In this document: positions 7,900 through 25,343 of the stretch, piece by piece
Layout: every line of letters starts with the position of its first letter
How positions within the stretch are numbered: the stretch's first letter is position 1
Source of the DNA: an uncultured bacterium
GTDB taxonomy: Bacteria; Lernaellota; Lernaellaia; Lernaellales; Lernaellaceae
Length of the DNA stretch: 26,842 nt
Reading direction: 5' to 3'
NCBI GenBank assembly: GCA_964534375.1
Contig: CAZHPN010000061.1
Span: 1-26,842, forward strand
Translations under genes and position numbers: made by a program
Notes under the pieces: model-generated
Databases searched by the model: none
Told to the model about the DNA's origin: nothing
The model's input: only the letters and a program-made list of their open reading frames with translations

Positions 7900-7986
7900 G
7901 CGTGTTCATCCCTTCCCGCCGGAACCGCTGCGGCTCGCCGGCGCGAACGACTAGCGCGCCCCCGATAAGACTAAATTGACCGTCGC

Positions 7987-7998
7987 TGCAACGTTGCA
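7987..7998. promoter_or_regulatory. Perfect palindrome TGCAACGTTGCA, candidate operator
   Basis: Lies 88 bp upstream of the EAL-like gene. Its 10-bp core recurs at 9661-9670. Confidence 0.4.
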
Positions 7999-8020
7999 CT
8001 AGCGGGGGCAGTCGAATGGT

Positions 8021-8254
8021 TTATTGTATTTCTTCAATCTCGCCGACAGGGTCGGAAGCCGTTGAGTCGAAATCAAAATGGCCTTTTAGGCCTTTGTCGA
8101 AGCCTTTGATTCGTCGCGAATACCGCGCGGTGCGGGCATCGATCTGGAGTTGCTCTTCATCGGTCCGATTCGGTGTGACGCCGCAGGCCCGGTCCAACCA
8201 CCGAAACGAAACAGCCGTGGTTCGCACGCGAGCCTTTTGTGCTTTCGCTCCCAC
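8021..8254 (-). CDS. Small hypothetical protein (77 aa)
   Basis: GTG start preceded by GGAAAGGA; mixed composition with an acidic tail; same strand as the downstream EAL-like gene. Confidence 0.5.
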   Translation of the reverse strand: MGAKAQKARVRTTAVSFRWLDRACGVTPNRTDEEQLQIDARTARYSRRIKGFDKGLKGHFDFDSTASDPVGEIEEIQ

Positions 8255-8257
8255 GTG

Positions 8258-8623
8258 TCATCCTTTCCGCGCCGCAACGCGCGCCAAATTGGGTTTCGCA
8301 ATTCCGTTCGACGTCCGTGCAACCCGTCTCCGTCGCCGCGCTTTGCTGTCGAGCGGCAAGCTGCGGACGCGGGCCTTGGCCCTGTTCCCGACTGCCGCTT
8401 CGTTCCGACGGCGATTCTTTTGGTTGCGAAGCCCGCCCGTGCAAAGTTGTTCATTCGCGGACGCCACGTTAATCGGTTCGATCGGTCTTCGTCGTTCGGC
8501 ATCGCCTCGCGTCGCGGTCGTTTTCTCGACGCTCACCGAACCGCGGGCAGACGTCCGCGGTTTGACGCGCGCACGATGCTTGCGCCGTTGCTCGGTCTCG
8601 TTTCGGCGCCCCACGTTCCGCAT
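8258..8623 (-). CDS. Possible highly basic hypothetical protein (121 aa)
   Basis: ATG 8623 has a weak GGTGA upstream, and its stop overlaps the RBS of the next ORF. The Arg-rich composition could equally be non-coding GC-rich sequence. Confidence 0.25.
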   Translation of the reverse strand: MRNVGRRNETEQRRKHRARVKPRTSARGSVSVEKTTATRGDAERRRPIEPINVASANEQLCTGGLRNQKNRRRNEAAVGNRAKARVRSLPLDSKARRRRRVARTSNGIAKPNLARVAARKG

Positions 8624-8702
8624 TTTCACCGCCCAGTATCCGCCGGCTCCGCCCGCGCGATCGACGCGATGAACACCATCGCCACGATCGGCGCCGACGT
8701 TT

Positions 8703-8751
8703 AAAAAACAACAGCGGCGCCATCGCACCCCCCCAAGGGCACGATGCCACC
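8703..8751 (-). terminator. Terminator/attenuator-like hairpin
   Basis: Minus strand GGTGGCATCGTGCCC-ttgggg-GGGTGCGATGGCGCC followed by GCTGTTGTTTTTT. Confidence 0.55.
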
Positions 8752-9024
8752 CACACCCCTCCGCGAAACGCGAAGTCAATGCGGCGCACTTCGTCGGCGA
8801 ATTTCGCATTCGCCCACCGCGCCGCAAAGCAACGCCGGCGACGTGGCGTCCGGTCCCGCCGCGTCAGCCGCAACGAGAAGGCAAGCGCCTTCGTCGCTGT
8901 CAACAACGTTCACGCCCGGCAGCCGATAACAACACCCGGCGACCGAGCGGCGCGCAATCAAAGTATAGCCGCTCTCACCGACTTTTGCCACCCGCCGTGG
9001 CAGTCTCCCACGTAGATTGCTGTC

Positions 9025-9706: not shown

Positions 9707-9730
9707 AAAAAAACGCGAAGGCGCTCTTTT
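9707..9730 (-). terminator. Short intrinsic terminator after the DUF1566 remnant
   Basis: AAAAGAGCGC-cttc-GCGTTTTTTT starting at the TAA stop. Confidence 0.5.
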
Positions 9731-10052
9731 ATCGGCGAACACAACGGACAGCGTGTTCGTCTTTGACGTTGGGGTTGAAGACGCGGCCGTTATAGAAATT
9801 GATGTGCCACGCCTGGGCGCCGTCGTCCGCGACAGCCGAGGCCGACCAGCACCAGCTTATCTTTCCGGAAAATGATAGATCGTTCGGCCAATACACGCCG
9901 CCCGGACCGGGGCCGCCTTTTTCGGCACAACCTCGGCACGGCTTTTTCCAGCAAACGCGATTCAAGCACACGTCCGTCACCATGCAGGAACCGCCTTTCT
10001 GCGTGACCGGACAGCCAAGAATCAAACTGCGAAGCTCGGAGATCGTCGGCAA
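9729..10052 (-). pseudogene. 5'-truncated Cys-rich DUF1566 gene
   Basis: LPTISELRSLILGC...GGPGPGGVYWP...WSASAVAD...AWHINFYNG...VRCVRR*. Homology begins abruptly inside the WRLPT motif, with no signal peptide or RBS-supported start upstream. Confidence 0.8.
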
Positions 10053-10096
10053 GATGCGTGTCGGGAATTTCGGTTGCGCCGGATCCGCGCAAACGG

Positions 10097-10126
10097 TTGA
10101 CGCCCGCGGCGGGCCGATGGTAAGTT
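10097..10126 (+). promoter_or_regulatory. Putative sigma70 promoter for TPR-CHAT gene 1
   Basis: TTGACG-18 nt-TAAGTT with an extended -10 TG; GGGGGGAG RBS at 10191-10198. Confidence 0.55.
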
Positions 10127-10200
10127 TCGCGACGCCATCAACTAGAGTTTCTGCATCGTTGCGCAACCGGCAATAACCTTCGACGCCTTCGGGGGGAGCT

Positions 10201-13200
10201 ATGCGACTGTGGAAATGCGGCGTGGCTTTGGTTGTTTTGGCGCTCGCGGCGGCGTGCGGCGCGGGGTGCGACGTCATGACTCGGCACGTGGTGGGCACGG
10301 CGCCGTACAGCGACCCGGCGCCGATCAAGGTGCTGGTCATCCACGACAGCAACAAGGGCAAGGGCTTCAAGGACGAACATATCGTCGACGCCGGCGCCGG
10401 TTTGGATGTGCGTTTTTCGGGCAATTGGATGACGCACCCGGCGTATGCCGACTACGACTACGTGGTCATCGCCCGGGCCGAACAGAACACCGGCTGGGGG
10501 TCGTTCATGGGGTTCTGCGGCGCCGCGTTCAGCATTATCACCGTGACCGTTCTGCCGGGCCTGACCGAAGCGGGCGCCGCCACCTGGATCGGCGAAGTGC
10601 ACCGCGCCACCCCCGATTTCCCAATCGTGGGCAATGCGCAGATCAAGTTGAAACACACGGCCGTGCTGTGGATGTTCATGGTGCTGGGCGATCGTCGATA
10701 CGATGTCGGCGCGGTGCAGAGCATGGTGGTGGCCGATCTCCGCAGCCACCCGCGGCCTGTGGCGCAGCGCGCCGAACCCGCCGCGGTCGACCAGCGCCAG
10801 CCGGAGGCGGCCGCGGGAACGACGACCCGCAGCCCGGGCGAGCAATACGCCGATCTCGCCCGGAAACTGGAAGCCGAAGGCCGCTACCCCGAGGCGGTCT
10901 CGCCGCTGGCGAAGGCGGTGGAATATTACACGCAGGCGGCCGGCGCGCAGTCGAAAGAGGTCGGCGTCGCCCGTATGGATCTGGGAACCGAAAACCTGCT
11001 GGCCGGGCAACTGGCGCCGGCGACGACGGAATTGCTGGCGGCCGGCGCCGCGCTGGCGGCGACCGCCGGCGAAAACAGCGACGAAATGGCCAAGTGGCAT
11101 CAGCGGCAGGGCCGCCTGAATTTCGCGCTGGGGCGTTATGCCGACGCCGGGGCCGACTATCAAAAGGCGCTGGCGATTCGCGAGTCGTTGCGCGGAAACG
11201 AGAACGAGCGCGAAAAGGGCGCGACGGTCCTCGAACAAGCGCGGCTGGCGATCGCGCAGGCGCGTTATGCCGAGGCGCAAAAGGCGCTGGACCGCAGCGG
11301 CGAACTGCTTCGCCGCCACTGCGACGGGAACCATCCGCTCGCGATCCAGCAGCGCGAGATGTCGAGCCTGCTCGCGTTCGCCCAGGGCAACTACCCTGCG
11401 GCGGAAAAGAGCCTCAAGGAACTGCTCGACAAGACGCGCCAGGCGCTGGGGCCGAACCACCCCGAGGCGTCGCGCCAGCTCAACGACCTGGCCGCCGTCT
11501 ATCTGGCGCGCAATCAGCCCGAGACGGCGCGGCCGTTGCTCGATCTCGCGTTGCAGAATCAGAAGCAACTGCTGGGCGACGCGCATCCGGATGTGGCGAT
11601 CACGGACGCGAATCTTGCGCAGTGCAATCGCGAGGCGGCGAGGTACGCCGACGCGGCGGCCGGGTTCGACCAGGCGTTGGCGCTGCAGGCGCGGGCGCTG
11701 GGCGACCATCATCCGGCCTACGGCGAAACGCTGGACCGCCGGGCCCGCCTGCTGCTGGCGATGGGCGATTTCTCGCAAGCCGGCGAAGCGGGCCGCGCGG
11801 CGCAGGGCGTGATTCGGGGCGTCTTCCCGGTCAATCATCCGTGGGCCGCGGCGAATCTCGTCACCCTGGCGTTGGTCGATCACAAAATGGGCCGCTTCAC
11901 CGACGCCGAAACGAAATTCCAGGAAGCGCTGGCGGCGTGGCAGGGCCTCGACTGGACCAATGCCGACGTGCCGCAGCGGCATCCGCAGATCGCCAACGTG
12001 CGCCACCTCCTGGCGAACCTCTACGCCGAGTGGGGCCGCTACGCCGACGCCGAACGGCTGCTCAACCTCGCGCTGGCCATGGAACGCGGCTACGCCGGCG
12101 AACGCAGCCTGCCGGTCGTGGCGACGCTGACCACGCTGGCCCGCGTCGACGCCGCCGCGGGCGAGTTCCCGAAAGCGCGCGCCGCTCTGGACGAGGTGGC
12201 GCAGATCCAGCCCGAGGCGTTGAAGGAACGGACGCCCGAAACGGCCGCCGCGCTGGCCGGCGTGGCCGAAGCCAACGCCGCGGTCGGCGATTACGCCCGC
12301 GCCACGCAGAACCTCGGCGAGGCCGCCGCGATCCAACGCGAGACGCTCGGGGCGCAAAGCCCGGCGGTGGCCGCCACACTGACGCAATTGGCGAAGGTCA
12401 ACATGGCCGCCGGCGACTACGCGCAGGCCGAAACCAACCTGGCCAGCGCGGCGAGCATCCAGCAAAACGAGCCGGCCAACCCGCAAGCGGCGCAGACCCA
12501 GCAGGAACTGGCGGCGCTTTACACCGTCACGGGCCAGTACGCGGAAGCCGGCAAGATCTACGCGAAACAGGCGGATGCGGCCCAGCAGGTTTTCGGAAAA
12601 CAGAGCGTCGAATACTCGCAGGCGCTGCTCGACGAAGGCGAGTTCTACGGCCAGACCTACCAATTCGACGCGGCGGGCAAGGCGCTGGCGCAGTCGGTCG
12701 AGATTCAACGCAAGCGCCTGCCGCCCGACCACCCGGCGCTCGCCGACGCGACGCGCCAACTGGCGCAGAACTTCGAGGCGGTCGGCGACCAGGCGCAGGC
12801 CGAACAACTGTACGCGCGCGCCCTGGAAATGCAGAAAAAGACGCTGGGGGCCGACCACCCACGCACCATCGCGACCTACGCCGATCTCGGCCTGCACTAT
12901 GCCAGCCTCGGCGACTTCAAACGCGCGGAGGAGAGCCTCGCCGCGGCGTTGGCGGCCGCGGAACGGCGCGATCAATCGGCGCCCGGGGTCAGCCCGGCGA
13001 CGGCCGACCTCAAAGACGACTTGGGCCTGGTCCAGTTCTATCGTGGCGATCTCGACGGGGCGGCGAAGCTGTTGACCGAGGCCGCCGAGGCCCGCGCGAA
13101 GCTGTTCGGCCAGGACCACCCGCTGACGGCCGCGTCGCTCGACCATCTCGGAATGCTCGCCCTGGCGCGCGGCGACACGGACGGCGCCCGCCGGCAGTTC

Positions 13201-15039
13201 GAGAGCGCGCTGCAAACGCGCCAGAAGCTGCTGGGCGAGGAGCATCCGGACACGATCGAGGCCCACGATCATCTCGGCGGGCTGTACTGGCGACTCGGAG
13301 ACCGCGCCCACGCGAAGGCCGAGTTCGACCTCGCCTTCGCCAACCTCAAGAAGCACGTGCTGAAGAACCTGGAGTGCGGCCTGACCGGCGAAGGCCTCAA
13401 GTTCCTCGCGCTGGTGCGGCCGCAGCTCGACCGGCAGATTTCGTTCTTTCTGAGCGGCGACGATGCGGCGGCGGCGTACGCCCGCGCGGCGTTCGCCAAG
13501 GGACTGCACTTCGACGCCGCGATCGCCGCCCGCGAGGCCAACGCGCTGCTGGGCGAACCGGCCGTGCGCGATTTGCTCGTGCGCTACCGCAGCGCCGTGA
13601 ACGTGCAGAGCAAGCTCTTCAACCAACTCGTGCGCGAGCCGGACGCGGCCCGCCGCCAAACCCTCAACGAGTATCTGAAGGGTTGGACGGAAAACGTCGT
13701 CGCGCTCGACCGCGAGCTGGCGGCGAAGAGCAACCGCTACGTCCGCAACAAGGCGGCGCTCGACCTGACGACCGCCGCCGTGCAACGCGCGCTGCCGCCC
13801 GACGCCGCCCTGGTCGACATCTACCGCTATGCGCCGTCAGCGCCGGGGCGCAACGCTGCGGCCGGGGAAAACGCGGACGAGTATCTCTTCTTCGTGGTGG
13901 ACAAAAAGGGCGTGGCGGCGGCAGCGCAGCCGGCGCAGAACGTCGGCCGGCTGGTCGAACGGGTCTATGCGGAATTCCAATCCGACCGCGCGGCGGCGGC
14001 GCTGGCCGGCGGGGCCGGCGGGGCGGCGGCGGAGCAGGAATACAAGAACGCGGCGCGGGCGCTGTACGCGAGCGTGCTGGCGCCGTACCGCGACAAGTTG
14101 CGCGCCGGGCAGCTCGTGCTGGTCAGCGCCGACTCGACGCTGGCGACGATTCCGTTCGAGGCGCTCGCGGACGACCGGGGCGAGTACCTGGTGGGCCAGT
14201 ACGTGTTCGGCTACGAAGCGTCGGCGCGCGAATTCGTGCGCGTGGTCGGCCGCGCGACGGCGGGGCGCGGCGCGCTGCTGGTCGGCGATCCGAATTTCGG
14301 CGAGCCGCCGCCGGCCGACGCGAAGGCCGCGGCCAACCCGTTGCAGTTCGGCCGCCTGGAACAGACGGGGCTCGAGGTGCAACAGGTCGCGCCGAGTTTC
14401 GGGGCGGACAACGAAATACTGCTGGGCGCGGCGGCCCAGGAGGCGCGGGTGAAAAGCCAGGCGCCCGGCCGCCGGTTCCTGTACTTCGCCACGCACGGCT
14501 ATGTGCTGACGCGCGAGGCGGCGGCGCCGGCCACGGGCGCCGCGGTGCGCGGCATCGGGCTGGCCGGCCAGTTGGTCCACGGCGTGCCGCTGGCGCAGGT
14601 TGTGGCGAACCCGCTCGATCTGTGCGGCCTGGCCCTGGCCGACGCGAACCTGCCCAAGCCGGCGGACGGCGCCGGCGACGACGGCCTGCTGACGGGTCTG
14701 AAGGTGACGGGCCTGAATCTCGACAGCGTTTCCTGCGCCGTGTTGTCGGCGTGCCAGACCGGGTTCGGCCACGTGCGCGAGGCGCAGGGCCTGGTCGGAT
14801 TGCGCTACGCCTTCACGCTGGCCGGGGCCGCGTCGGTGCTGGGCAGCGCGTGGTCCGTGCCCGACCTGGAAACGCGCGAACTGCTGCAGATCTGGACGCC
14901 GCGGGTCGTCGCCGGCGAACCGGCCGGCAAGGCGCTGCAAGCCGCCAAGCTGGCGGAGATCGAGGCCGTCCGCGCCCGCTATCAGCACACGCACCCGCTG
15001 TTCTGGGGCGCGTTCACGGCCTCGGGCAAGGTCTGGTAG
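10201..15039 (+). CDS. Exported (probable lipoprotein) TPR-CHAT protease (1612 aa)
   Basis: Signal peptide with lipobox-like LAAAC/GAGC; long array of ~42-aa TPRs (LGxxHP...LA..Y...G.Y..A); CHAT motifs LATIPFEAL, LVGDPNF, YFATHG (His), DDGLLT, VLSACQTG (Cys), WSVPD, HPLFWGAF. Confidence 0.95.
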   Translation: MRLWKCGVALVVLALAAACGAGCDVMTRHVVGTAPYSDPAPIKVLVIHDSNKGKGFKDEHIVDAGAGLDVRFSGNWMTHPAYADYDYVVIARAEQNTGWGSFMGFCGAAFSIITVTVLPGLTEAGAATWIGEVHRATPDFPIVGNAQIKLKHTAVLWMFMVLGDRRYDVGAVQSMVVADLRSHPRPVAQRAEPAAVDQRQPEAAAGTTTRSPGEQYADLARKLEAEGRYPEAVSPLAKAVEYYTQAAGAQSKEVGVARMDLGTENLLAGQLAPATTELLAAGAALAATAGENSDEMAKWHQRQGRLNFALGRYADAGADYQKALAIRESLRGNENEREKGATVLEQARLAIAQARYAEAQKALDRSGELLRRHCDGNHPLAIQQREMSSLLAFAQGNYPAAEKSLKELLDKTRQALGPNHPEASRQLNDLAAVYLARNQPETARPLLDLALQNQKQLLGDAHPDVAITDANLAQCNREAARYADAAAGFDQALALQARALGDHHPAYGETLDRRARLLLAMGDFSQAGEAGRAAQGVIRGVFPVNHPWAAANLVTLALVDHKMGRFTDAETKFQEALAAWQGLDWTNADVPQRHPQIANVRHLLANLYAEWGRYADAERLLNLALAMERGYAGERSLPVVATLTTLARVDAAAGEFPKARAALDEVAQIQPEALKERTPETAAALAGVAEANAAVGDYARATQNLGEAAAIQRETLGAQSPAVAATLTQLAKVNMAAGDYAQAETNLASAASIQQNEPANPQAAQTQQELAALYTVTGQYAEAGKIYAKQADAAQQVFGKQSVEYSQALLDEGEFYGQTYQFDAAGKALAQSVEIQRKRLPPDHPALADATRQLAQNFEAVGDQAQAEQLYARALEMQKKTLGADHPRTIATYADLGLHYASLGDFKRAEESLAAALAAAERRDQSAPGVSPATADLKDDLGLVQFYRGDLDGAAKLLTEAAEARAKLFGQDHPLTAASLDHLGMLALARGDTDGARRQFESALQTRQKLLGEEHPDTIEAHDHLGGLYWRLGDRAHAKAEFDLAFANLKKHVLKNLECGLTGEGLKFLALVRPQLDRQISFFLSGDDAAAAYARAAFAKGLHFDAAIAAREANALLGEPAVRDLLVRYRSAVNVQSKLFNQLVREPDAARRQTLNEYLKGWTENVVALDRELAAKSNRYVRNKAALDLTTAAVQRALPPDAALVDIYRYAPSAPGRNAAAGENADEYLFFVVDKKGVAAAAQPAQNVGRLVERVYAEFQSDRAAAALAGGAGGAAAEQEYKNAARALYASVLAPYRDKLRAGQLVLVSADSTLATIPFEALADDRGEYLVGQYVFGYEASAREFVRVVGRATAGRGALLVGDPNFGEPPPADAKAAANPLQFGRLEQTGLEVQQVAPSFGADNEILLGAAAQEARVKSQAPGRRFLYFATHGYVLTREAAAPATGAAVRGIGLAGQLVHGVPLAQVVANPLDLCGLALADANLPKPADGAGDDGLLTGLKVTGLNLDSVSCAVLSACQTGFGHVREAQGLVGLRYAFTLAGAASVLGSAWSVPDLETRELLQIWTPRVVAGEPAGKALQAAKLAEIEAVRARYQHTHPLFWGAFTASGKVW

Positions 15040-15061
15040 CGGCGCCGCGGCTCGCCGTCGG

Positions 15062-16657
15062 TTACGGCATCGTGGTGACGGTCACGCGGGTTTCGGCCAC
15101 GGGCGCCGCCGCGGACGGGTTGGCCAGGCCGATGCCGCGCATCTTGGGCAACGCGACGGCGAGGTCCTCGGCGAGCACCTCGTAGGGCACGCCGTCGATC
15201 GTTTGCGGCGCGGTCCGGACGGCGGGCAGGGGCGTTGTCGAGGCGAGCACCTGCAGCACCTCGGCCCCGAACGGCGGCATGACCTCGTAGTCCTGCGGCA
15301 GTTCGACCACCTTGTTGACCTTGCTGGCGTCGATGAAATAGTCGTAGCCGTCCCGCCCGACGATGGACACCAGCACGCGCTGCTTCGTGGCCAGATGATA
15401 GACGAGCCGGATATGGGCCGGCTGGTTCACGCGGACCAGGATTTTGTACGTCGCGCCGCGCCGCAGCGCCAGGTTGCGGTCGCCGCGGGTCGTCCACGCC
15501 TGCACGGCGAGGCCGCCGCTGACGATGTCGCCCCGGCCGAAGACCTTTTGGTCGGCCATCGCCTCGACCGCGTTCGCCGGTTTGAGCGCGAGCCCTTCCT
15601 GCGCGACGACCGCCGCGGCGATCGCCGAATCGGCCGTGCCCAGCCGGTCGCCGGTGGCCGGGTCGACGGCGTAGGCGAACACGCGGATCTCGTCGCCTTT
15701 GTCCTGGTAGCTGCCCGTCACGGCCAGCGCGCCGGCGGCCGGATGGCCGGCGTCGCTCGATCGCAGGCGCATGCCGTCCGCCGCGGTCGCGCCGACCTTT
15801 TCGCCGGCGAGCTTGGCCGCCATCGCCGTCGCGAGGAAACGCGAGAATTCGGAGGTGAAATCGGTGTCCCGATAGGTGAAGGGCGCGACGACGACGCGTC
15901 GCGCTCCGACCTGCGCCGCCAGGCGGTGGGCCAGAATCGCGGCGAGGGCGTCGACCGACTCGCAGCGCCGCGCCAGCAGCCGTTCGATCGCGGCGGTGAC
16001 GGCGGCGCGGTCGACCGCCGGGCCTTCCTCTGTATCGGACCGCGCGCCGCCGACGACCAGCAGCACGGCCTCCGCTTCTTCCAACTCGGCGAAATGCGGA
16101 TAGGCGGATTCGTAAATCTTCGCGGCCTGCGCCGCATCGCCCCGGCTTTCGGCGTCCTTCGCCGAGGCCGTCAGCCCGGCGATCGCCCGGCGGAGTTGCG
16201 CCGCGCGCCCGGCGTAGGTGCGGGCCGCCTCGCGGACATTCATCACGGCCAGCGCGTGGACGGTCGCCGCGCGGCGATCGTCATAGCGTTCGACCTTCAC
16301 ACCCAGCAATTTCAGCGTCGAGAAGGCGCTGACGCTGGAGCGCACGTATTGGGTGTCTTGGCCGTTGCGGTTCTGCTCTTCGGAATCCAACACCGCATTG
16401 ACGCGCGTTTCGAAAATGCCGGCCAGGGCGGCGCGGGCGGCCGCTTCCGCGGCGGGCGCGGCTTTTTCGAGGTCGGCGTCCTTCGAGCAGCCGTAGCCGG
16501 TGAGAAATTGCGCCGCGGGATACTTCGCGGACTTGCCGGCGCCGGCGGCCCAGTCCGGTTGGTCCTCGCACCACGCGGGCACGACGCCGGCGAGCAGGAG
16601 CGCGAGACCGGCCAGCGCGGCGCGCGCCGCGAACCGCCAAGAGGGAAGGTGGTTCAT
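15062..16657 (-). CDS. Secreted LPP20-like / FlgO-like / DUF4384-like protein (531 aa)
   Basis: Signal peptide; QPDW...YP...FLTGYG...ARAALAGIFETRV (LPP20-like); VVVAPFTY...SEFSRFLA...VTGSY (FlgO/CsgG-like); VQAWT...YKILVRVNQPAHIRL...PPFGAEVLQVLAS (DUF4384-like). Start reassigned to ATG 16657 with GAAAGG RBS. Confidence 0.85.
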   Translation of the reverse strand: MNHLPSWRFAARAALAGLALLLAGVVPAWCEDQPDWAAGAGKSAKYPAAQFLTGYGCSKDADLEKAAPAAEAAARAALAGIFETRVNAVLDSEEQNRNGQDTQYVRSSVSAFSTLKLLGVKVERYDDRRAATVHALAVMNVREAARTYAGRAAQLRRAIAGLTASAKDAESRGDAAQAAKIYESAYPHFAELEEAEAVLLVVGGARSDTEEGPAVDRAAVTAAIERLLARRCESVDALAAILAHRLAAQVGARRVVVAPFTYRDTDFTSEFSRFLATAMAAKLAGEKVGATAADGMRLRSSDAGHPAAGALAVTGSYQDKGDEIRVFAYAVDPATGDRLGTADSAIAAAVVAQEGLALKPANAVEAMADQKVFGRGDIVSGGLAVQAWTTRGDRNLALRRGATYKILVRVNQPAHIRLVYHLATKQRVLVSIVGRDGYDYFIDASKVNKVVELPQDYEVMPPFGAEVLQVLASTTPLPAVRTAPQTIDGVPYEVLAEDLAVALPKMRGIGLANPSAAAPVAETRVTVTTMP

Positions 16658-16687
16658 TGGATTGCCTTTCCGAAAAGGTTGATGTCG

Positions 16688-16869
16688 CCGCAAAGACGCA
16701 AAGAGCGCAAAGGGATGAAGAAATAAGCCGCGAAGGCGCGCGAATGCAGGCGAATAGAATCGGACAAATGTTCATTAGGATTCACTGACGTTCATTCCTG
16801 GTCAAACCCATTCATTCGATTCCTGTTCCGGCCGGCCGTATTCGCGTGCATTCGCGTGCATTCGCGGTT
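16688..16869. repeat. REP/MITE-like element with imperfect inverted arms
   Basis: CCGCAAAGACGCAAAGAGCGCAAAG, then left arm AGCCGCGAAGGCGCGCGAATGCAGGCGAATA (16726-16756), complementary to right arm TATTCGCGTGCATTCGCGTGCATTCGCGGTT (16839-16869). A second copy lies at about 21223-21399. Confidence 0.75.
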
Positions 16870-16917
16870 AGCCCCAATCATTCAATTCCTGTTCCTGCCG
16901 CTCTTGGCGGTCGCGTC

Positions 16918-19900
16918 TCACCAGGTCCGGCCGGACACCGTGAACGCGCCCCAGAAGAACGGATACATCGACCCGGTGCGCTGTTTCACCTCGGCCATCA
17001 GCTTCAGTTGCTCGTCGCGCAGCGAGGCCGCGGCCGGTTCGCCGGCCAGCACGCGGGGCGTCCAGCGCTCCATCAACGTCTTCGTTTCGTCAGACGGCAC
17101 GCTCCAGGAGGTCGCGGCCACGGTCCGCGCGCCGGCCAGGGTGAACGCGTAGCGCAGGCCCATGATGCCTTGCCCGCTTTTCACCTCGCCGAGGCCCGTC
17201 ACGCAGGCCGAGAGCACGACCAGCTTCGCGCCGGTCAGGTCGAGGTTCACCACCTTCGCGCCGGTCAGCAGGCCGTCGTCCTCGGCGGATTCGCGCACGC
17301 CCGGCGCGACGTTCGCCCCGGCGAAGGCCAGGCCGCACAGCGACAGCGGATTCACCACCGGCCCCGCCTTGCGAACGGGACCGCCTGGCGACTCGGCCGC
17401 GCCAACAAGACCGATGCCGCGGGTTCCTTCGCGGGCCGGTTCCGGCCGCTCGATGAAGTAACCGTGCGTGGCGAAATAGAGATATTCGCGGCCGGGCGCT
17501 TGCCGCTTGACCGCCGCTTCCGTCGCCGCCGCTCCGAGCAGCACCTGCGCGCCCTTTCCCGCCGCCTTGCCGACGGTCCGCACCTCGTCGGCCGTTTCCG
17601 CCAGCCGTCCGAAGCGGAGCGTACCGATGTCGCCAACCGCGGCCCGGGCGTCGCCGGCGAAACCGGCGCCTCGCGTAAACGCCACGCCGGCGGAAGTTGA
17701 CGATCGCCCGGCGGCGCCCGCGTCGAAGTCCGGATCGCCCGCGAGCAGCGCGCCCTTGCCGTTGGTCCAAGCCGCCGCGGCGCGGATGACTTCCCGCGCC
17801 GAGGCGGCGTAACCGAGCGTGTACTTCTCGATGAGATAATGCCCTTGGTCGTCCGTCAGCACCGAAAAGGGCACGGTGGACAACATTCCGTCCGGGCTGA
17901 CGATGATCTTGTCGAAGCCGTTCAGGGCCGGCGCCAACGGGGCGAACACCTTGCCGTAGAGTTCGCTCGCCGCCTCTTTGTAACGCGCTTCCTTTTCGGC
18001 GAAGTTGCCGCCGGAAACGGCGGCCGGGTCCAGGCGTTGGCGCACTTTGCCGACGAGCGCGTCGATCGCGTCGGCGTCACCGAGATCGAAATACTGGATT
18101 TTATCCTTGGTCACGACGAACGCGGCGTAGCGATATTCGAACCACACTTTCTTCGGGTCCATGGGGTCGAATCGCCGATAGCGGAAGTAGTCCGCCAGGG
18201 CCGTTCCGGCCGGCAAGGCCGCACGAACGGCCCGACCATCGGCGCGCAGGGCGTCGCGGTTCGTCCGATACGCGGCGCTGGCACCGGCGAGAGCGGTGTC
18301 AAGCTCTGCCACGCGGGCTTGCAGGTTCTTGATTTCCGCCTCCAGCGCCGCACGTGCCTGGGATTCGGTGGTGGTGAATCGCTTGTCGATCAGCAAAGAA
18401 AGCCGCTCGTTGGCGCGAACGAAGTCGTCGAAGAGCGTTTTGGTTTGCGGATCGGCCAGCGCCGCCCGCCGCGACGCGCTCGCCGCATCGAAAAACAGCC
18501 CCTTGCAGAAGGCGACCGGGTCATAGGCCTTCTCGGCAGCGCGGTAGGTGAGGTTGAAGCTGGTAAGGGCCGCGAAATGGGATGTGTTCGCTTCCAGCAG
18601 CTTCATTCCCTCGCCGGTCTGCCCCGCATTCAGGTTGCGCGCGAGAAATGCAGAACGCGCGGAAAAGGCCGAATCCAAATGCCGGCCCGCATCGTCCATG
18701 CGACCCATCGTCCATTCTATTTCGCCCAAATTGGAATATGACGTTGCCGTGTCCGGATGCTCCTCTCCTAAGACCTTGCGCCTTATCTCCAGCGCCTTCT
18801 TGAACAGCGGCTCGGCCTCAGCGCGCCGGCCGGTGCGTTCATAAAGCCACGCCAGGTTGTTGTACAAATTCGCCGTGTCCGGGTGCTCCTCGCCCAGGGC
18901 CTTGCGATAGATCTCCAGCGCCTTCTTGTACAGCGGTTCGGCCTCGGCGTACCGGCTTATGTCGCAATAATGTCCAGCGAGGTTGTTATAGCTTTTCGCC
19001 GTTTCCGCGTGCTCTTCACCCAGCGCCTTGCGGTTTATCTCCAACGCCTTCTTGTATAGCGGTTCGGCCTCGGCGTGCCGGCCTGTCATCTCGTACAACC
19101 ACGCCAAGTTGGTATAAGAAATCGCCGTGGATGGGTGTTCCTCGCCCAAGGCTTTGCGCTTGATCGCTAACGACTTCATGTACAGCGGCTCGGCCTCAGT
19201 GTATCGGCCGGTGTTGTCATAGAGTACAGCCAATTCGTTGTAAGATTTCGCCGTGATCGGGTGCTCCTCGCCCAGCGCCTTGCGATAAATGTCTAGCGCC
19301 TTTTTCAATAGCGGCTCGGCGTCGGCGTAGCGACCAGTAACGGAATAAAGCCACGCCAGGTTGTTGTACAAATTCGCCGTGTCCGGGTGCTCCTCGCCCA
19401 GGGCCTTGCGATAGATCTCCAGCGCCTTCTTGTACAGCGGTTCGGCCTCGGCGTAGCGAGCCGTGGTGTCGTAGAGTGCTGCCAGATTGTTGTAGGACGC
19501 CGCGGTTTCCCGACGCTCTTCCCCCAAGACCGTGCGCGTGATCTCCAAAGCCTTCTTGCATAGCGGTTCAGCTTCCGCATATCGGCCGGTTTCGAGGTAA
19601 AGTGCCGCCAGTTTGCTATAAGAAGCCGCCGTGTCAGGGTGTTCCTCGCCCATCGCCTTGCGCCTTATCTCCAGCGCCATTTTGAGGGGCCGCTCGGCGG
19701 CGGCGTATCGGCCGGTAACGCGATAAAGATCGGCCAGGTTGTTGTAGGCTACTGCTGTTTTCGGGTGCTCCTCGCCAAACGTTCTTTTGACCAGATCCAA
19801 CGCTTGTTTCGCGATGAAGATTGCTTCCTCGTAGCGGTGTTCTTGGTACGCCCGAATCACTTGTTTGTTAAGTTCGTTCCATTGCTGCTGATCGTCGCCC

Positions 19901-19968
19901 CAAGCCGCCGATGCGAGGCCGATTAACGAAGACAATAACAGGACAAACGAGAACGCCCTCTTGCCCAT
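16918..19968 (-). CDS. Secreted TPR-CHAT protease (1016 aa)
   Basis: GAGGGAG RBS before ATG 19968; signal peptide MGKRAFSFVLLLSSLIGLASAAWG; about ten regular 42-aa TPRs (LGEEHPDTA.SYNNLA.LY..TGRYAEAEPLYKKALEI); CHAT motifs SPDGML, YFATHG, VLSACVTG, YPFFWGAF. Confidence 0.95.
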   Translation of the reverse strand: MGKRAFSFVLLLSSLIGLASAAWGDDQQQWNELNKQVIRAYQEHRYEEAIFIAKQALDLVKRTFGEEHPKTAVAYNNLADLYRVTGRYAAAERPLKMALEIRRKAMGEEHPDTAASYSKLAALYLETGRYAEAEPLCKKALEITRTVLGEERRETAASYNNLAALYDTTARYAEAEPLYKKALEIYRKALGEEHPDTANLYNNLAWLYSVTGRYADAEPLLKKALDIYRKALGEEHPITAKSYNELAVLYDNTGRYTEAEPLYMKSLAIKRKALGEEHPSTAISYTNLAWLYEMTGRHAEAEPLYKKALEINRKALGEEHAETAKSYNNLAGHYCDISRYAEAEPLYKKALEIYRKALGEEHPDTANLYNNLAWLYERTGRRAEAEPLFKKALEIRRKVLGEEHPDTATSYSNLGEIEWTMGRMDDAGRHLDSAFSARSAFLARNLNAGQTGEGMKLLEANTSHFAALTSFNLTYRAAEKAYDPVAFCKGLFFDAASASRRAALADPQTKTLFDDFVRANERLSLLIDKRFTTTESQARAALEAEIKNLQARVAELDTALAGASAAYRTNRDALRADGRAVRAALPAGTALADYFRYRRFDPMDPKKVWFEYRYAAFVVTKDKIQYFDLGDADAIDALVGKVRQRLDPAAVSGGNFAEKEARYKEAASELYGKVFAPLAPALNGFDKIIVSPDGMLSTVPFSVLTDDQGHYLIEKYTLGYAASAREVIRAAAAWTNGKGALLAGDPDFDAGAAGRSSTSAGVAFTRGAGFAGDARAAVGDIGTLRFGRLAETADEVRTVGKAAGKGAQVLLGAAATEAAVKRQAPGREYLYFATHGYFIERPEPAREGTRGIGLVGAAESPGGPVRKAGPVVNPLSLCGLAFAGANVAPGVRESAEDDGLLTGAKVVNLDLTGAKLVVLSACVTGLGEVKSGQGIMGLRYAFTLAGARTVAATSWSVPSDETKTLMERWTPRVLAGEPAAASLRDEQLKLMAEVKQRTGSMYPFFWGAFTVSGRTW
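18841..19455. repeat. Exact 111-bp duplication inside the TPR array (18841-18951 = 19345-19455)
   Basis: Base-for-base identical by manual comparison; offset 504 bp = four 126-bp TPR units. Confidence 0.9.
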
Positions 19969-20011
19969 GTTTTCTCCCTCGACGGAATCACTAATCTGCA
20001 TGTTCGGTCGA

Positions 20012-20587
20012 CTACCGTACGCACCGCGCGCTGCTGCCAAAGCCTTCGTGGGGCTTGACGTAGCCGTACTTTACGGCGCCGCTGTTGAAATTGACGCCCC
20101 ACGCGTGACCGCCGAGGTCGGCGAGCGCCGAGGACGACCAGTACCAACCCGGCTCTCCCGAAAGCTCAGGTGGCCAATAGGCACCACCCGGACCGGGACC
20201 ACCTTGGGCCGAGCATGCCTCGCAGGTATCTTTGCTCCAACACTCATTGATACTCATGCACTTGCCGCCCACCCTACAGGCCCCGTCCTTCTGCGTCGCC
20301 GGACAACCCCTGATCAAGCTCCGAAGCTCCGTGATCGTCGGCAAACGCCAGTCATTGTAGCCTCCGAGAGACAAGCCTTGACAATTCGCTTGCGCCTGTT
20401 GCCATCTCATTTTCCCGCCCGTCGGAGACACCTGCCACGTCAAACCCGACGTCGGGTCCTTCCATGTGTCGACGGATGGCAGGGATACCGGCTTAGGCTT
20501 AGAGTCTTCGCCGCCATACGAAAACGCCAAGCCGAGGCTAAGGCACATCACAGCACAAGACACGATTATAAAGGCCCTTCGCATCAT
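20012..20587 (-). CDS. Secreted Cys-rich DUF1566 (Lcl C-terminal-like) protein (191 aa)
   Basis: AAGGAGGG RBS; signal peptide; WKDPTSGLTWQ, CQGLSLGGYNDWRLPTITELRSL, YWSSS, AWGVNFNSG, ARCVR. Confidence 0.9.
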   Translation of the reverse strand: MMRRAFIIVSCAVMCLSLGLAFSYGGEDSKPKPVSLPSVDTWKDPTSGLTWQVSPTGGKMRWQQAQANCQGLSLGGYNDWRLPTITELRSLIRGCPATQKDGACRVGGKCMSINECWSKDTCEACSAQGGPGPGGAYWPPELSGEPGWYWSSSALADLGGHAWGVNFNSGAVKYGYVKPHEGFGSSARCVR

Positions 20588-20920: not shown

Positions 20921-21399
20921 CCATCTCCGGCCGGACACCGTGAACGCGCCCCGGAACAACGGATACGTCGATCCGGTGCGCTGTTTCACCTCGGCCATCA
21001 ACTTCAGTTGCTCGTCGCGCAGCGACAGCGGATTCACTACCGGCCCCCCGCGAGCGCCGCCGCCCGGCGTCTCGGCCCCGCCGACAATGCCGATGCCCCG
21101 CGGCCCTTCGCGGGCGCGACGCCGGCGAGCAGGAGCGCGAGACCGGCCAGCGCGGCGCACGCCGCGAACCGCCAAGAGGGAAGGTGGTTCATTGGATTGC
21201 CTTTCCGAAAAGGTTGATGTCGCCGCAAAGACGCAAAGAGCGCAAAGGGACGAAGAAATAAGCCGCGAAGGCGCGCGAATGCAGGCGCAGCGGATCGGAC
21301 AAATGCGCATTGGCATGGACGAGCGGACATTCGCGGCTGCACCCAATTCATGCCGTCAATTCCTGTTCCCGCCGGCGTTGTTCGCGCGCGTTCGCGGTT
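20921..21399 (-). pseudogene. Three-part chimeric remnant of an LPP20-like gene start and a CHAT gene end
   Basis: 20921-21025 matches 16921-17025; 21020-21115 matches 17338-17436; 21109-21399 matches 16574-16869. Confidence 0.9.
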
Positions 21400-21439: not shown

Positions 21440-22756
21440 TCACGAACGATTCTTCGCGGTTGGTTTCCGGCGAACCCGCGTCGTCGGTTTGCGCGACTTC
21501 AGTTCGGGAATGCCGCGCGCGACTCGCTCTTTCGCGACGGTTTCGACGGGATAACCGAGCCGGTCGGCGAGCGCCCGGTCCGGCAGTTTTCCGAGCGGCT
21601 GTTCGTCCCAGAAGCGGCGCTCTTCTTCCGCTTTTTTGCGCGTTCGCAGGCTGGGAATTCCCCGCGTTCTGCGGGCCAGCGCCACGGTCGAGACGGCGCA
21701 ACCGAGTCGTTCGGCCAGCGCGCCATCGGTCATTTTCCCCAGGGGTTGTTTGGCCCACTCGATTTCGAGCCGCCGCGGCGGTTGGCAGGGCGGAATTCCG
21801 CGCCGCTGGCGTTGGCCGGCGACCGCGGCGGCGCTGACCCCCAGCCGGCGCGCAATGACCGAGTCGCGTTCCCGGCCGAGGCCGACGCCGTCCCAAGCGA
21901 TTTGCCGCGTCCGGCGCGCCGCGAACGGCGCAATTCCCGCCTTTTTGCGGCGCCGCACGGCCAACGCGACCGAGACGCCGTGCTTGGCGGCAAAGGCGCG
22001 GTCGGTCATGGTTCCCAGTTCGGCGACCGGCACGATTTTTCGCTCGCCGCGGACGAAGGTCGGGCAGCGGGGAATGCCGCGCTTTCGCCGCTGTTCGAAA
22101 ACGGTGCGCACGTGCAGTCCCAGTTTTCTCGCGAGGGCCGCGTCGCTTTCCCGGCCGAGGCCGACCCGGTCCCAGTCGATGCCGCGGCCGGCGTCGCGCC
22201 GATACGGCGGAATGCCGCGCTGCCGTCGATGGTCAAATACCGTCGAGACGTCGAGCCCCAGCCGCTTCGCGATGTCGCGGTCGCTTTCCTGGCCGAGACC
22301 GACCGCGTCCCAATCGATTTTCTGCGCGGTCCGGGTCGTATAGGACGGAATGCCGCGCTTTCGCCGCTGCGCGAAAACGATATTGACGCCAAGTCCCAAC
22401 TTTTCCGCGATCGCCCGGTCGATTTCCCGACCGAGGCCGACGCGGTCCCAATCGATGGCGCGCCGCCGCCGCGGATCGAACGGCGGAATTCCCGCCTCTT
22501 TGCGCCGTTTGAAGACCACGGCCAACGCGACGCCGTATTTGGCGCCCAGCGCCGCGTCCGTCATCGTTCCCAGTTCCGCGAGCGGGAGGTCGATGCGATT
22601 GGACCGCCGGCGCACGGGGCACACCGGTATGCCGCGCTTTCGCCGTTGCGCGCCGACCGTGTCGCTGAGGACCCCGAGCCGGCGCGCGAGGGCCGCGTCG
22701 GATTCGCGCCCCAACGGAACTTCGTCCCAAGCGATCGGCTGCTTTTTTCCGCTCAT
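21440..22756 (-). CDS. Protein of nine tandem ~46-aa HTH-like repeats (438 aa)
   Basis: Consensus IDWDxVxLGxxxDxxlAxxLGxxxxxVxxxRxxxGIP repeated nine times; very basic; no other domain. Start is ATG 22756 or TTG 22774. Confidence 0.9.
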   Translation of the reverse strand: MSGKKQPIAWDEVPLGRESDAALARRLGVLSDTVGAQRRKRGIPVCPVRRRSNRIDLPLAELGTMTDAALGAKYGVALAVVFKRRKEAGIPPFDPRRRRAIDWDRVGLGREIDRAIAEKLGLGVNIVFAQRRKRGIPSYTTRTAQKIDWDAVGLGQESDRDIAKRLGLDVSTVFDHRRQRGIPPYRRDAGRGIDWDRVGLGRESDAALARKLGLHVRTVFEQRRKRGIPRCPTFVRGERKIVPVAELGTMTDRAFAAKHGVSVALAVRRRKKAGIAPFAARRTRQIAWDGVGLGRERDSVIARRLGVSAAAVAGQRQRRGIPPCQPPRRLEIEWAKQPLGKMTDGALAERLGCAVSTVALARRTRGIPSLRTRKKAEEERRFWDEQPLGKLPDRALADRLGYPVETVAKERVARGIPELKSRKPTTRVRRKPTAKNRS

Positions 22757-22796
22757 CCAGGCGCCCGCCAACAAGGGTTTTATCTAACGGCTGCTT

Positions 22797-23157: not shown

Positions 23158-23781
23158 ATGAAGACCTACTTGGCAGCGTGGCTGGCGGTTTTGAGCGGGT
23201 TCTTGGCGCTGGCGCTCGCGTGCGGCAGCAGCGGGAGCAAAGCCGCAGCCACAGCGACTATGCGGGGCAATGGCGGCGGAGGAGACGACGACAGCGCGGC
23301 AAACGACGACGTATGGACGGACCCGTCCACCGGCTTGATGTGGGACCTTAGTGCGGAAACGGCCGAGTTCGGGTGTGAAAATTTGCAGGCGGCCATTGAA
23401 TATTGCATCCAATCAAAGAAAGCCGGCTATTCTGGATGGCGGGCGCCGACAATTGACGATTTGAGGACCGTCATTGTTGCGTGCTCTCCAACGGAGACCG
23501 GCGGGGCGTGCGACGTGACAGACTCCTGCAATTCGGCGACGAATTGCAGGAATAGCGCCTGTTCCGGGTGCGGCGAATCCGGGGCTGCCGGCGCTTATAG
23601 CAAAAACGGCAATTGGCAAAATGTTTCCTGCTCCTCAACAACGGATGCGGATGAACCGGCCAGCTTCGTGTGGACCGTCGATTTCCACGATGCGAGCATT
23701 CAATATTATGGGGCCAACGGCGGCACGGTGTTGCAACTCTCATGCGTGCGAAATTCAACCGCAACGGACGTCCGAAAATAA
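23158..23781 (+). CDS. DUF1566 (Lcl C-terminal-like) lipoprotein (207 aa)
   Basis: GGGAG RBS; lipobox LALAC-GSS; Gly/Asp linker; WTDPSTGLMWD, GYSGWRAPTIDDLRT, same Cys-rich insert as the paralogs, WTVDF, SCVR. Confidence 0.9.
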   Translation: MKTYLAAWLAVLSGFLALALACGSSGSKAAATATMRGNGGGGDDDSAANDDVWTDPSTGLMWDLSAETAEFGCENLQAAIEYCIQSKKAGYSGWRAPTIDDLRTVIVACSPTETGGACDVTDSCNSATNCRNSACSGCGESGAAGAYSKNGNWQNVSCSSTTDADEPASFVWTVDFHDASIQYYGANGGTVLQLSCVRNSTATDVRK

Positions 23782-24198: not shown

Positions 24199-25343
24199 GA
24201 ACGATCTCCTTTCTTCTTTTTCAATTCGGCAAGGATCTCCTCTTGCACCTTGAGGATTTTGAGCAAGATTTCGCGATCGCTCGGCGGCGGCGCCGGCGCC
24301 GCCGCCGCCCGGACCCGAGGCGCCGCCGCGGCCCCCGGCAACGCCGTCAACGGGTCCAGGTACGGGAGTTCAGGCGGCGTCATCAACCGCGAGACGTCGA
24401 CGCCGAGGCGGGCGAGCGCATCGCGCAGGGACCGCGAGGCGTTTCGTTCGTGGTGGGCGAGCACGCATTGCTGCCAGGAAGGCGTATTCAACTCCCGGGT
24501 CGCCTTCGCGTTGAGGTAGACGCAACGTTTGCAATGAAAGGCATCGCAGGTCCGGCAAATCGGCGCGTGGTCGAGGCCTAGCAGTTGAGCGTTCCGAATC
24601 TCGAAGCCTTCTTCGACATTGCCCACGGCGGCGGATTTGTCGCCGTAGCAGAAACCTGGGCAGATGTACAACTGGCCGTCCGGCGCGCAGGTGAGATGAT
24701 GGACGCCGGCGCCGCAGTTGTTCATGCGGCCGAGCGACAAACGATCCGAAAGAACGTTCAGCTCGGCAGCGTCGCCTGCGGCGCAGGCCGCCGCAACGGG
24801 CGTTTCCAGGGCTTGAAGCTGCCGGCGATATTCCTCAACGTCGGCGTGGCCGTACTGTTCGACGTCCAGAGGGACCACGTTGATTCGTCGGGCCGCATTG
24901 AGATAGGGGATCAGCAAATCGGCCGCGTGCGAGATCTGGCTTTTTTCCAGCCGGACGATCAGGTTGCGCGCCCGCGCTTGCCGAATCGCGTCCGGTCGAG
25001 CCAGGTCGTTTCCGTCCAACACGATTACGGCGTCGCGGTAACGCCGGGCGAGCGCCAGCGGCGCGATCTTGACATGGGGCGCCTGGTCAATTTGCCGTTC
25101 GTGAGCGGCCGGAAGAGGCTCGGCCCCGAGAACGAACTGGAGCTGGAGCTTTCTCTTGTTCGCCAACGCGACCACGCGGCTCAAGCGTCGCAATGGCATG
25201 CGACTGGCAGCCGTCGGGCGGGCGCCGCGATTGCGGTAATGACAAAACGAGACGGCGGCGGCGTCCGTCAGAACGATCAACTGTTGCAGGTCGAGTCCGA
25301 CGCGATTCCAGGCGTCCGCGCGAGCGGGAGGCGACGGCGTCAT
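24195..25343 (-). CDS. CXXX repeat peptide maturase (TIGR04119-like; degenerate radical SAM plus SPASM-like domain)
   Basis: VSFCHY near the N-terminus; NNCGAG...PDGQLYICPGF; APICRTCDAFHCKRCVYLN...ELNTPSWQQC; ATGA overlap with the upstream gene. Confidence 0.88.
   Translation of the reverse strand: MTPSPPARADAWNRVGLDLQQLIVLTDAAAVSFCHYRNRGARPTAASRMPLRRLSRVVALANKRKLQLQFVLGAEPLPAAHERQIDQAPHVKIAPLALARRYRDAVIVLDGNDLARPDAIRQARARNLIVRLEKSQISHAADLLIPYLNAARRINVVPLDVEQYGHADVEEYRRQLQALETPVAAACAAGDAAELNVLSDRLSLGRMNNCGAGVHHLTCAPDGQLYICPGFCYGDKSAAVGNVEEGFEIRNAQLLGLDHAPICRTCDAFHCKRCVYLNAKATRELNTPSWQQCVLAHHERNASRSLRDALARLGVDVSRLMTPPELPYLDPLTALPGAAAAPRVRAAAAPAPPPSDREILLKILKVQEEILAELKKKKGDRS

Follow-up and report, generated by a model that had tools for sequence, protein, structure and literature searches.

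Comparative analysis of a 26,842-nucleotide stretch of DNA from an uncultured bacterium (contig CAZHPN010000061.1; the whole stretch is referred to here as the window) points to a conserved and undescribed protease-target pair that occurs across many bacteria. In the window, two putative proteases with a CHAT domain (CHAT1 and CHAT2) are encoded on either side of a DUF4384-like protein, denoted here as the partner, and all three proteins contain the peptide Arg-Gly-Ile-Gly-Leu (RGIGL). The best explanation for this peptide is that it is the local form of a family-wide linear motif, R-G-hydrophobic, which usually takes the form T-R-G-[LMFI]-K-K. We assign a probability of about 0.5 to the reading that the motif is a recognition site shared by protease and partner, with Arg at P1 and the chain cut after this residue, such that the protease would process or auto-inhibit itself and would also act on the partner. 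In this proposal, which draws on sequence comparison, the active site would be the reader of the motif and scission would follow the Arg. In most phyla, the partner-linked protease is best explained as a C14 caspase homolog, with TPR-CHAT proteases having replaced C14 in the genome studied here (G000).

Motif Copies in the Window

The source genome (6.3 Mb, 64% G+C), of which the window is contig C61, belongs to a small phylum that was sampled with 17 genomes, including G000. A six-frame scan recovered all four motif copies that an initial annotation of the window had listed without strand: RGIGLA at 14548-14565 (+) inside CHAT1, RGIGLA at 15122-15139 (-) inside the partner, RGIGLV at 17404-17421 (-) inside CHAT2, and RGIGIV at 21083-21100 (-) inside a remnant. 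The latter three copies lie on the minus strand, and a plus-strand reading of the same positions yields other peptides.

CHAT1 (10201-15039, +) is a TPR-CHAT protease of 1612 amino acids (Pfam CHAT, PF12770, E = 1.1e-52, 179.8 bits; TPR_12, E = 2.4e-82). CHAT2 (16918-20040, -) likewise combines a TPR array with a CHAT domain; its open reading frame (ORF) spans 1040 amino acids and has a likely start at 19968 (1016 amino acids, P0010; Pfam CHAT, E = 2e-60, 205.1 bits, with a family cut-off of 24 bits). The partner gene (15062-16693, -) encodes ~531-543 amino acids, with a likely start at 16657 as in the database protein P0005. CHAT2 and the partner are co-oriented and CHAT1 converges on the partner. 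The N-termini of all three proteins are hydrophobic and signal-like when read by eye, and from these signal-peptide-like termini the proteins are predicted to be exported.

The four copies of the motif are not equally informative. The remnant had been listed with the other copies, but it consists of rearranged pieces of CHAT2 and the partner with 82-95% nucleotide identity (blastn), and its RGIGIV was therefore inherited from CHAT2 rather than acquired independently; it adds nothing to the argument. CHAT1 and CHAT2 are themselves paralogous, with CHAT domains that are 46-48% identical. DNA identity around the motif copies ends at the 18 bases that encode the motif, with no extended match, and therefore reflects neither a repeat nor a conversion tract; gene conversion and a DNA repeat were accordingly ruled out as sources of the identical word.

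RGIGL occurs 15 times in the 12.6 million six-frame codons of the genome, and three of these 15 occurrences fall within the three genes considered here. Among 146 other members of the partner family, the first residue after the tail R-G is I in 23, the second is G in two, and the third is L in eight, which yields a background probability for I-G-L in the family of ~1.2e-4. The I-G-L of the partner is therefore a rare departure (~1e-4) from its family, and this departure, from K-K to G-L, runs toward the word that is present in both flanking CHATs.

Conservation of the Motif in the Partner Family

The partner comprises a putative signal peptide followed by LPP20/FlgT-like, TolB-N/LpoB-like, and DUF4384-like parts. 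It scores 18.2 bits against Pfam DUF4384 (PF14326), and 22.2 bits in the genome scan, relative to a cut-off of 27, and LPP20 (PF02169) has no Pfam match in the partner at E <= 0.01. Its relatives P0007 and P0008 have a precomputed match to PF14326. Structural comparison with Foldseek returned HP1454 (4kzs, E = 1.4e-3), FlgT (3w1e), the LpoB C-domain (4q6l), and the TolB N-domain; these matches are weak and multi-domain, all with low TM-score. Relatives of the partner comprise 827 representatives at E <= 1e-3 and 191 at E <= 1e-30, and most of the latter are ~500 amino acids in length and align end to end (residues ~30-542). Within its own phylum, the partner was absent from the other 16 genomes at E <= 1e-10, with the exception of one partial N-terminal match.

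An alignment of 68 relatives (mean column identity 32%) has no more than seven invariant columns, among them R519 and G520 (ORF numbering) of the partner motif, which is located 24 residues before the C-terminus; the R-G is kept in 68/68 relatives. The tail consensus of the family is K-T-R-G-[LMFI]-K-K-K ... A-E-x-R-x-x-x-T-T, and R-[GA]-hydrophobic is present at the tail site in 145 of 154 members. R519, G520, E534, T540, and T541 of the partner are conserved in the family, to which it belongs by full-length similarity and by its tail motif. A divergent Bacteroidota subgroup (L074, L075, and L076) has NRR or TGK in the tail and no R-G, and the flanks that were fetched for these three loci lack C14.

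The AlphaFold2 model of the partner is confident overall (predicted local distance difference test [pLDDT] 88.5, predicted template modeling score [pTM] 0.80), with a lone helix at residues 19-36 and a beta-sandwich at ~397-542. The R-G is positioned at the end of a helix (511-518) that precedes the last strand (532-542), and residues 521-523 are the sole internal stretch with pLDDT < 50. Because the R-G is at a helix end and is followed by low-confidence residues in an otherwise confident model, the partner motif is judged to be exposed and not buried. The initial annotation had named burial of the motif as a result that would refute its proposal, and the models instead place it in predicted flexible loops in both the partner and CHAT2.

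Association With Peptidase C14 and Pair-Specific Co-variation

Partner loci were retrieved from species-representative genomes (n = 26) with alignment A3, a single-protein query having found none, and were affiliated with Bacteroidota, Ignavibacteriota, Lentisphaerae, Verrucomicrobia, Kiritimatiellae, Myxococcota, Deltaproteobacteria, Spirochaetes, and other groups. Three further close relatives from a metagenome scan brought the dataset to 29 loci, among them L033, which is only a partial DUF4384 match. Peptidase_C14 was identified in 13 of these 29 loci, which represent at least eight phyla or classes, and was mostly the adjacent gene (Pfam and our own profile). In an even sample of Bacteroidota, the partner family was detected in 16 of 401 genomes, and four of the 15 new loci encoded an adjacent C14 (two repeats of L010 and L012 were dropped). 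C14 genes were present in 69 of 201 sampled Bacteroidota genomes, and because these genomes encode on average ~1 or fewer, we estimate that adjacency by chance would be well under 1%.

The extended motif RG[LIVMF]K[LIVMFAP] was identified in nine of the 13 neighboring C14 proteases vs. only one of 217 other ORFs of >= 200 amino acids in the same loci, and in none of 30 Bacteroidota C14 ORFs that were sampled regardless of partner. The feature that is specific to partner-linked C14 proteases is the extension that matches the partner, beyond R-G-hydrophobic itself. Partner tail and adjacent protease read, respectively, RTRGMKTV and TTRGMKIP in L008, NTRGFKIK and DTRGFKIA in L069, KTRGMKKV and KSRGMKAV in L023, KSRGYQMV and KSRGFARV in L077, KLRGIRID and SLRGITVT in L038, and HRGLRRK and RGLKVRK in loci of the Planctomycetes-Verrucomicrobia-Chlamydiae (PVC) group. 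In L036, K-G-I-A-V in the protease, at the site 93-101 residues ahead of the His, stands opposite R-G-I-R-V in the partner.

Matches of this kind were also identified where the C14 is distal to the partner gene. Partner tail and distal C14 read ATRGMKKVK and QTRGMKKI in G154, KTRGLKKST and NTRGLKKT in G159, KTRGLKKSA and STRGLKKS in G247, TTRGLKKDA and NTRGLKKV in G259, and RGMK in both proteins of G084 and of G126; G174 has no good match. RG[LIVMF]K was present in 11 of 19 distal C14 proteases of partner-bearing genomes vs. one of 26 from partner-less genomes (Fisher 7e-5, a value that overstates the significance since kin genomes are not independent). A permutation test on 15 collapsed pairs (PVC orthologs, L025/L027, and the two window CHATs were each collapsed to one) revealed 29 identities over six flanking positions vs. 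20.3 +- 3.0 in shuffled pairs (P = 0.004; 0.0007 with derangements).

Collectively, the invariant R-G, the synteny, and the pair-specific co-variation support and generalize the earlier proposal of a cognate protease-partner pair linked by a short Arg-Gly motif. The accompanying expectation of co-variation across homologous loci is borne out over pairs that are mostly C14-partner pairs and include the window CHATs as one pair (P = 0.004); none of the 29 outside loci offers a further CHAT-partner pair for comparison.

The matching site of the C14 proteases either precedes the catalytic His by 93-101 or 137-144 residues or follows the catalytic Cys by 25-28 residues. Caspases and their homologs are processed at the prodomain boundary and in the p20/p10 linker (excerpts of PMC5756287), and orthocaspases cleave after basic residues (excerpts of PMC6426788). 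The positions of the C14 motif correspond to these two canonical caspase maturation sites. Since the sequence is kept while its position moves, we consider it a linear motif rather than a fold element. The initial annotation had envisaged a loop near the active site; this describes the His-Cys loop of CHAT1 and CHAT2 but not most of the proteases, where the motif lies before the catalytic domain or ~27 residues past the Cys.

The CHAT Proteases of Genome G000

Both CHAT1 and CHAT2 contain the sequences ATHG and LSAC, and their translations confirm that the motif is situated between the catalytic His and Cys that these sequences carry. In CHAT1, the motif Arg (R1450) lies between His ~1432 and Cys ~1518, and in CHAT2 the corresponding residues are H859, R874, and C946, with the H859 and C946 columns invariant in 73 sequences. 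The AlphaFold2 model of CHAT2 (pLDDT 86.8, pTM 0.86) is without secondary structure at 863-897, and residues 868-891, which hold RGIGL, have pLDDT < 50. Among 116 TPR-CHAT relatives with a recognizable His, 21 have RG[LIVMF] between the His and the NPLL strand vs. an expectation of ~2.6%, as calculated from the density of RG[LIVMF] elsewhere in the same proteins. Typical loop forms in these relatives are GTRAVGG, TRGLTL, and QRGIGG, and the loop of the closest relatives of CHAT2 (P0011 and P0012; 67-70% identity) reads TRGGGF.

A home-built CHAT profile identified exactly three CHAT genes in G000. The third (CHAT3), on contig C279, lies immediately upstream of the second and last partner gene of the genome, which encodes a protein 61% identical to the partner, and all three CHAT genes thus flank the two partner genes. 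T-R-G-I lies before the CHAT domain in CHAT3, and the motif is found between His and Cys in CHAT1 and CHAT2 only, a placement peculiar to the TPR-CHAT lineage. The exact word RGIGL is local: the two proteins of the C279 pair have just RGI in common, and the loop of the nearest CHAT2 relatives differs as given above. All five clan-CD genes of the genome are within ~10 kb of a DUF4384 gene. The genes that flank the partner in the window encode CHAT, not C14, and a C14-PEGA gene is 10 kb away. The CHAT-partner system behaves like the C14 pairs without being one.

A DUF4384 domain and a CHAT domain also occur together in a single metagenome protein of 1750 amino acids (P0082), which consists of an N-terminal DUF4384, TPR repeats, CHAT, and a C-terminal ATPase-like region. 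The catalytic Cys of its CHAT domain is replaced by Ser (LSASESG), and P0082 looks like a pseudo-protease version of the DUF4384/CHAT domain pairing.

Proposed Mechanism and Alternative Explanations

If the motif is a recognition site, it would be read by the substrate cleft of the protease, with Arg as P1 and Gly as P1'. A motif inside the protease would then lead to self-processing or auto-inhibition, with the site placed before the catalytic domain or in a linker ~27 residues past the Cys in C14, and in the disordered His-Cys loop in CHAT1 and CHAT2. In the partner, the motif would occupy an exposed loop that leads into the final beta-strand of the DUF4384 sandwich, and a cut at this site would detach the strand and switch the partner. 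We tentatively extend this, with somewhat less than even confidence, to a widespread and undescribed envelope module in which a cleavage motif of the form Arg-Gly-hydrophobic-Lys, carried by both members and co-evolving between them, couples a clan-CD protease that is exported (C14, or CHAT in this lineage) to a lipoprotein-like LPP20/DUF4384 protein. The protease would be armed by cutting itself, and a cut at the last strand of the partner would serve as a one-shot periplasmic switch in signaling, defense, or surface remodeling. The window would then represent a swap of one clan-CD fold family for another, accompanied by a retuning of the motif to RGIGL in each of the three proteins.

Several observations weigh against a shared cleavage site. 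With respect to the proteins, an R-G-hydrophobic sequence that terminates helix 511-518 would also suit an ordinary helix C-cap, and its invariance in the partner family could be structural; the stretch from His to Cys would be an unusual place for a clan-CD protease to be cut; the specificities of CHAT proteases differ, with separase cleaving after Arg and craspases after Met or Leu (excerpts of PMC11506125); and the motif of PVC-type C14 proteases is only 2-3 residues past the predicted end of the signal peptide, where a cut would remove almost nothing. With respect to the word itself, 20% of shuffled partners (n = 2000) had a 5-mer in common with both CHATs and 31% (n = 2000) a 6-mer in common with CHAT1, the real proteins also have ARAAL and AGRAAQ in common, and for three proteins so rich in Ala, generic k-mer sharing does not exceed chance. 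In the C279 pair, the word common to both proteins is only RGI and is elsewhere in the protease, and plain RG-hydrophobic is common in control C14 proteases (21/30), often just past the Cys. With respect to the loci, no CHAT gene was identified within ~9 kb of the partner outside of G000 (0/26 and 0/3 loci), and 25 of 44 partner loci have no C14 within ~9 kb. Finally, the pairs in the permutation test were collapsed by hand, the genomes compared are kin, and the tests were designed once the pattern had been seen. A predicted complex of CHAT2 (640-1040) with the partner (390-543) had a score of 0.00, below the mark and without controls, which argues neither for nor against binding.

An alternative is that the motif is a docking element, where the same R-G-hydrophobic-K strand binds one non-catalytic groove, for example in the DUF4384 sandwich or in a third envelope protein, and tethers or competes ('tail swap') without proteolysis at that site. 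Docking would account equally well for the co-variation and the synteny, as well as for the placement of the motif right past the signal peptide in PVC-type and L016-type C14 proteases, where cleavage seems pointless, and for its location in or beside Ig-like accessory domains in L008, L030, and L032. An invariant Gly after Arg would also suggest a turn or the start of a strand more than it would a P1' preference. We nonetheless regard docking as unlikely, given that the motif is regularly placed at the two classical caspase maturation positions, that its basic residue is invariant, with the Lys for Arg in L036 (KGIAV) fitting the P1 preference of orthocaspases, and that it is disordered rather than docked in both models. 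Coincidence, which would concern this window only, is improbable. It would require that the R-G-I of the partner is a helix cap, that the T-R-G-I-G of the CHATs is a lineage trait, and that the additional G-L arose by chance in Ala/Gly/Leu-rich proteins encoded at 64% G+C. The shuffling results, the other common words, and the absence of CHAT-partner loci elsewhere are in line with this, as are the motif codons, which are preferred codons, and relatives with RGIGG and RGIGA loops that are without any known partner. However, the background of 1.2e-4 for I-G-L in the family, the concentration of three of the 15 genomic RGIGL in these three genes, and the independent appearance of similar matches between partner and C14 in other phyla all argue against it.

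It is also conceivable that the working protease of the partner is the exported C14-PEGA protein of the window (P0279; 2428-4698, -; Pfam Peptidase_C14, E = 3.7e-19; PEGA, E = 8e-20), and that the CHATs are later arrivals with a loop motif unrelated to the partner. The closest outside relatives of the partner (48-49% identity; L036 and L038) adjoin C14 proteins, one of which, in L036, is a C14-PEGA-FGE-sulfatase protein that closely resembles the N-terminal half of P0279 by eye, and P0279 has RGV after its signal peptide and RGL eight residues past the catalytic Cys, which are the usual positions. However, these sites (QERGVAPA and AKRGLTQS) match KMRGIGLA of the partner only in R-G-hydrophobic whereas both CHAT loops match further, the departure of the partner from the family K-K is toward the CHAT word, and the second partner gene (C279) is again beside a CHAT. 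This makes it very improbable that P0279 is the cognate enzyme, and we continue to favor a recognition site that is shared by the CHATs and the partner.

Comparison With Known Systems

The nearest known system is Csx29-Csx30 (Craspase), in which a TPR-CHAT protease (Csx29) and its substrate (Csx30) are encoded in the same type III-E CRISPR locus, and some Csx30 proteins end in a DUF4384 domain (excerpts of bioRxiv 10.1101/2022.08.17.504292). Csx29 differs in that it is cytoplasmic, RNA-guided, and Cas7-11-bound, and cuts after Met or Leu (PMC11506125, in part), whereas the proteins of the window have signal-peptide-like N-termini and an Arg-Gly motif that is present in the protease as well. 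No Cas families were detected among the 32 ORFs of the window that were scanned with Pfam, where no search for a CRISPR array was made.

The orthocaspases and metacaspases (C14, e.g., MaOC1) are likewise clan-CD enzymes with a His-Cys pair that cut after basic residues and must self-process (PMC6426788 and PMC5756287, both in part). MaOC1, which has a neighboring antitoxin, cleaves a protein encoded beside its own gene (excerpts of PMC7935541); C14 proteases are the usual neighbors of the partner family in other phyla. In contrast, the studied orthocaspases are cytoplasmic and cyanobacterial, and the enzyme in the window is a CHAT.

Separase cleaves itself in addition to its other substrates. 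The separase-securin pair resembles the system described here in that a CHAT-type clan-CD protease, kept in check by a pseudo-substrate inhibitor, cleaves an unstructured motif after Arg (PMC11506125, in part), but it is eukaryotic, recognizes (S/D/E)xExxR, and involves neither DUF4384 nor export. A further TPR-CHAT protein that is periplasmic, the anti-sigma factor DdvA of Myxococcus xanthus, has been put forward as a protein that self-cleaves in trans, with the cut falling in a flexible linker (PMC11506125, in part). It differs in that it is anchored in the membrane, its active site is incomplete, and its anti-sigma domain, which binds zinc, is cytoplasmic; it has no DUF4384 partner, and no R-G motif has been described for it. 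The only solved structures recovered with the CHAT2 domain in a sequence search were 8rot/8rw5 ('CHAT domain-containing protein'; E = 1.8e-5), which we infer to be DdvA.

Amyloid signaling motifs comprise ~20 or more residues, are terminal, and template a fold. Like the motif in the window, they are short sequences common to neighboring genes (NLR and effector) that mark a functional pair (excerpts of bioRxiv 10.1101/2020.01.06.895854). The core identified here, by contrast, has 3-7 residues, is built on Arg-Gly, lies within the protease chain, and is linked to a family of protease active sites. Its insufficient length and its internal position in the protease were the grounds on which an amyloid-type signaling motif was rejected. 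In the literature on DUF4384, CHAT autoprocessing, orthocaspases and MaOC1, and bacterial periplasmic caspases and PEGA, with subscription journals outside the search, neither the shared motif nor the pairing was described.

Bacterial caspase homologs and CHAT proteases are abundant, and almost none has a known substrate. If the motif is a recognition site, it would provide a physiological target and the P1-P1' specificity for many such enzymes at once, and cognate pairs, even those encoded by non-adjacent genes, would be predictable from sequence. C14 and CHAT would then be interchangeable in one module, and the question would be testable with two proteins and two point mutants.

Other Features of the Window and of Partner Loci

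The scrambled, non-coding remnant (20926-21396, -) combines a CHAT2 3' end, a CHAT2 loop piece with RGIGIV, and the intergenic region with the partner 5' end. Specifically, 20926-21025 is 95% identical to the 3' end of CHAT2 (16926-17025), 21016-21115 is 82% identical to the CHAT2 loop (17334-17436), and 21109-21396 is 88% identical to the spacer between CHAT2 and the partner together with the partner 5' end (16574-16856). The remnant adjoins an ORF of 444 amino acids (21440-22774, -) with several helix-turn-helix matches (HTH_23 and HTH_38), which may be a transposase-like cause of the rearrangement.

The C-terminal ~200 residues of P0279 have aromatic-Gly patterns and the look of a membrane beta-barrel. 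Directly upstream of its gene, an ORF of 1055 amino acids (4732-7899, -) matched no Pfam family at E <= 1e-3. Matches to the Lcl C-terminal domain were identified in ORFs at 9729-10424 (-) and 23158-23781 (+), one of which is just upstream of CHAT1, and a radical SAM protein is encoded at the window edge (25340-26581, -).

On contig C41 of G000 (7037-8806, -, and 13203-16859, -), a different DUF4384 protein, which passes the Pfam cut-off, and a C14 protein are encoded ~8 kb apart. The C14 protein has a very long Pro-rich repeat tail and a single RG-hydrophobic site, RPRGIFVE, before the catalytic domain, and its frame enters a masked or unassembled stretch. This pair was set aside as a further partner pair on account of its different architecture and its lack of a tail motif.

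In four PVC loci (L013, L014, L017, and L018), a string comprising the C14 protease, the partner, and a protein of 205-222 amino acids without a Pfam family is followed by QueF on the opposite strand, and the system may include the 205-222-amino-acid protein as a third member. In three loci where the partner gene has no adjacent C14, its neighbor instead encodes a small LPP20-domain protein (L009, 7438-8229; L011, 7230-8581; L026, 7147-7734), and L009 and L011 are two partner copies located 17 kb apart on one contig.

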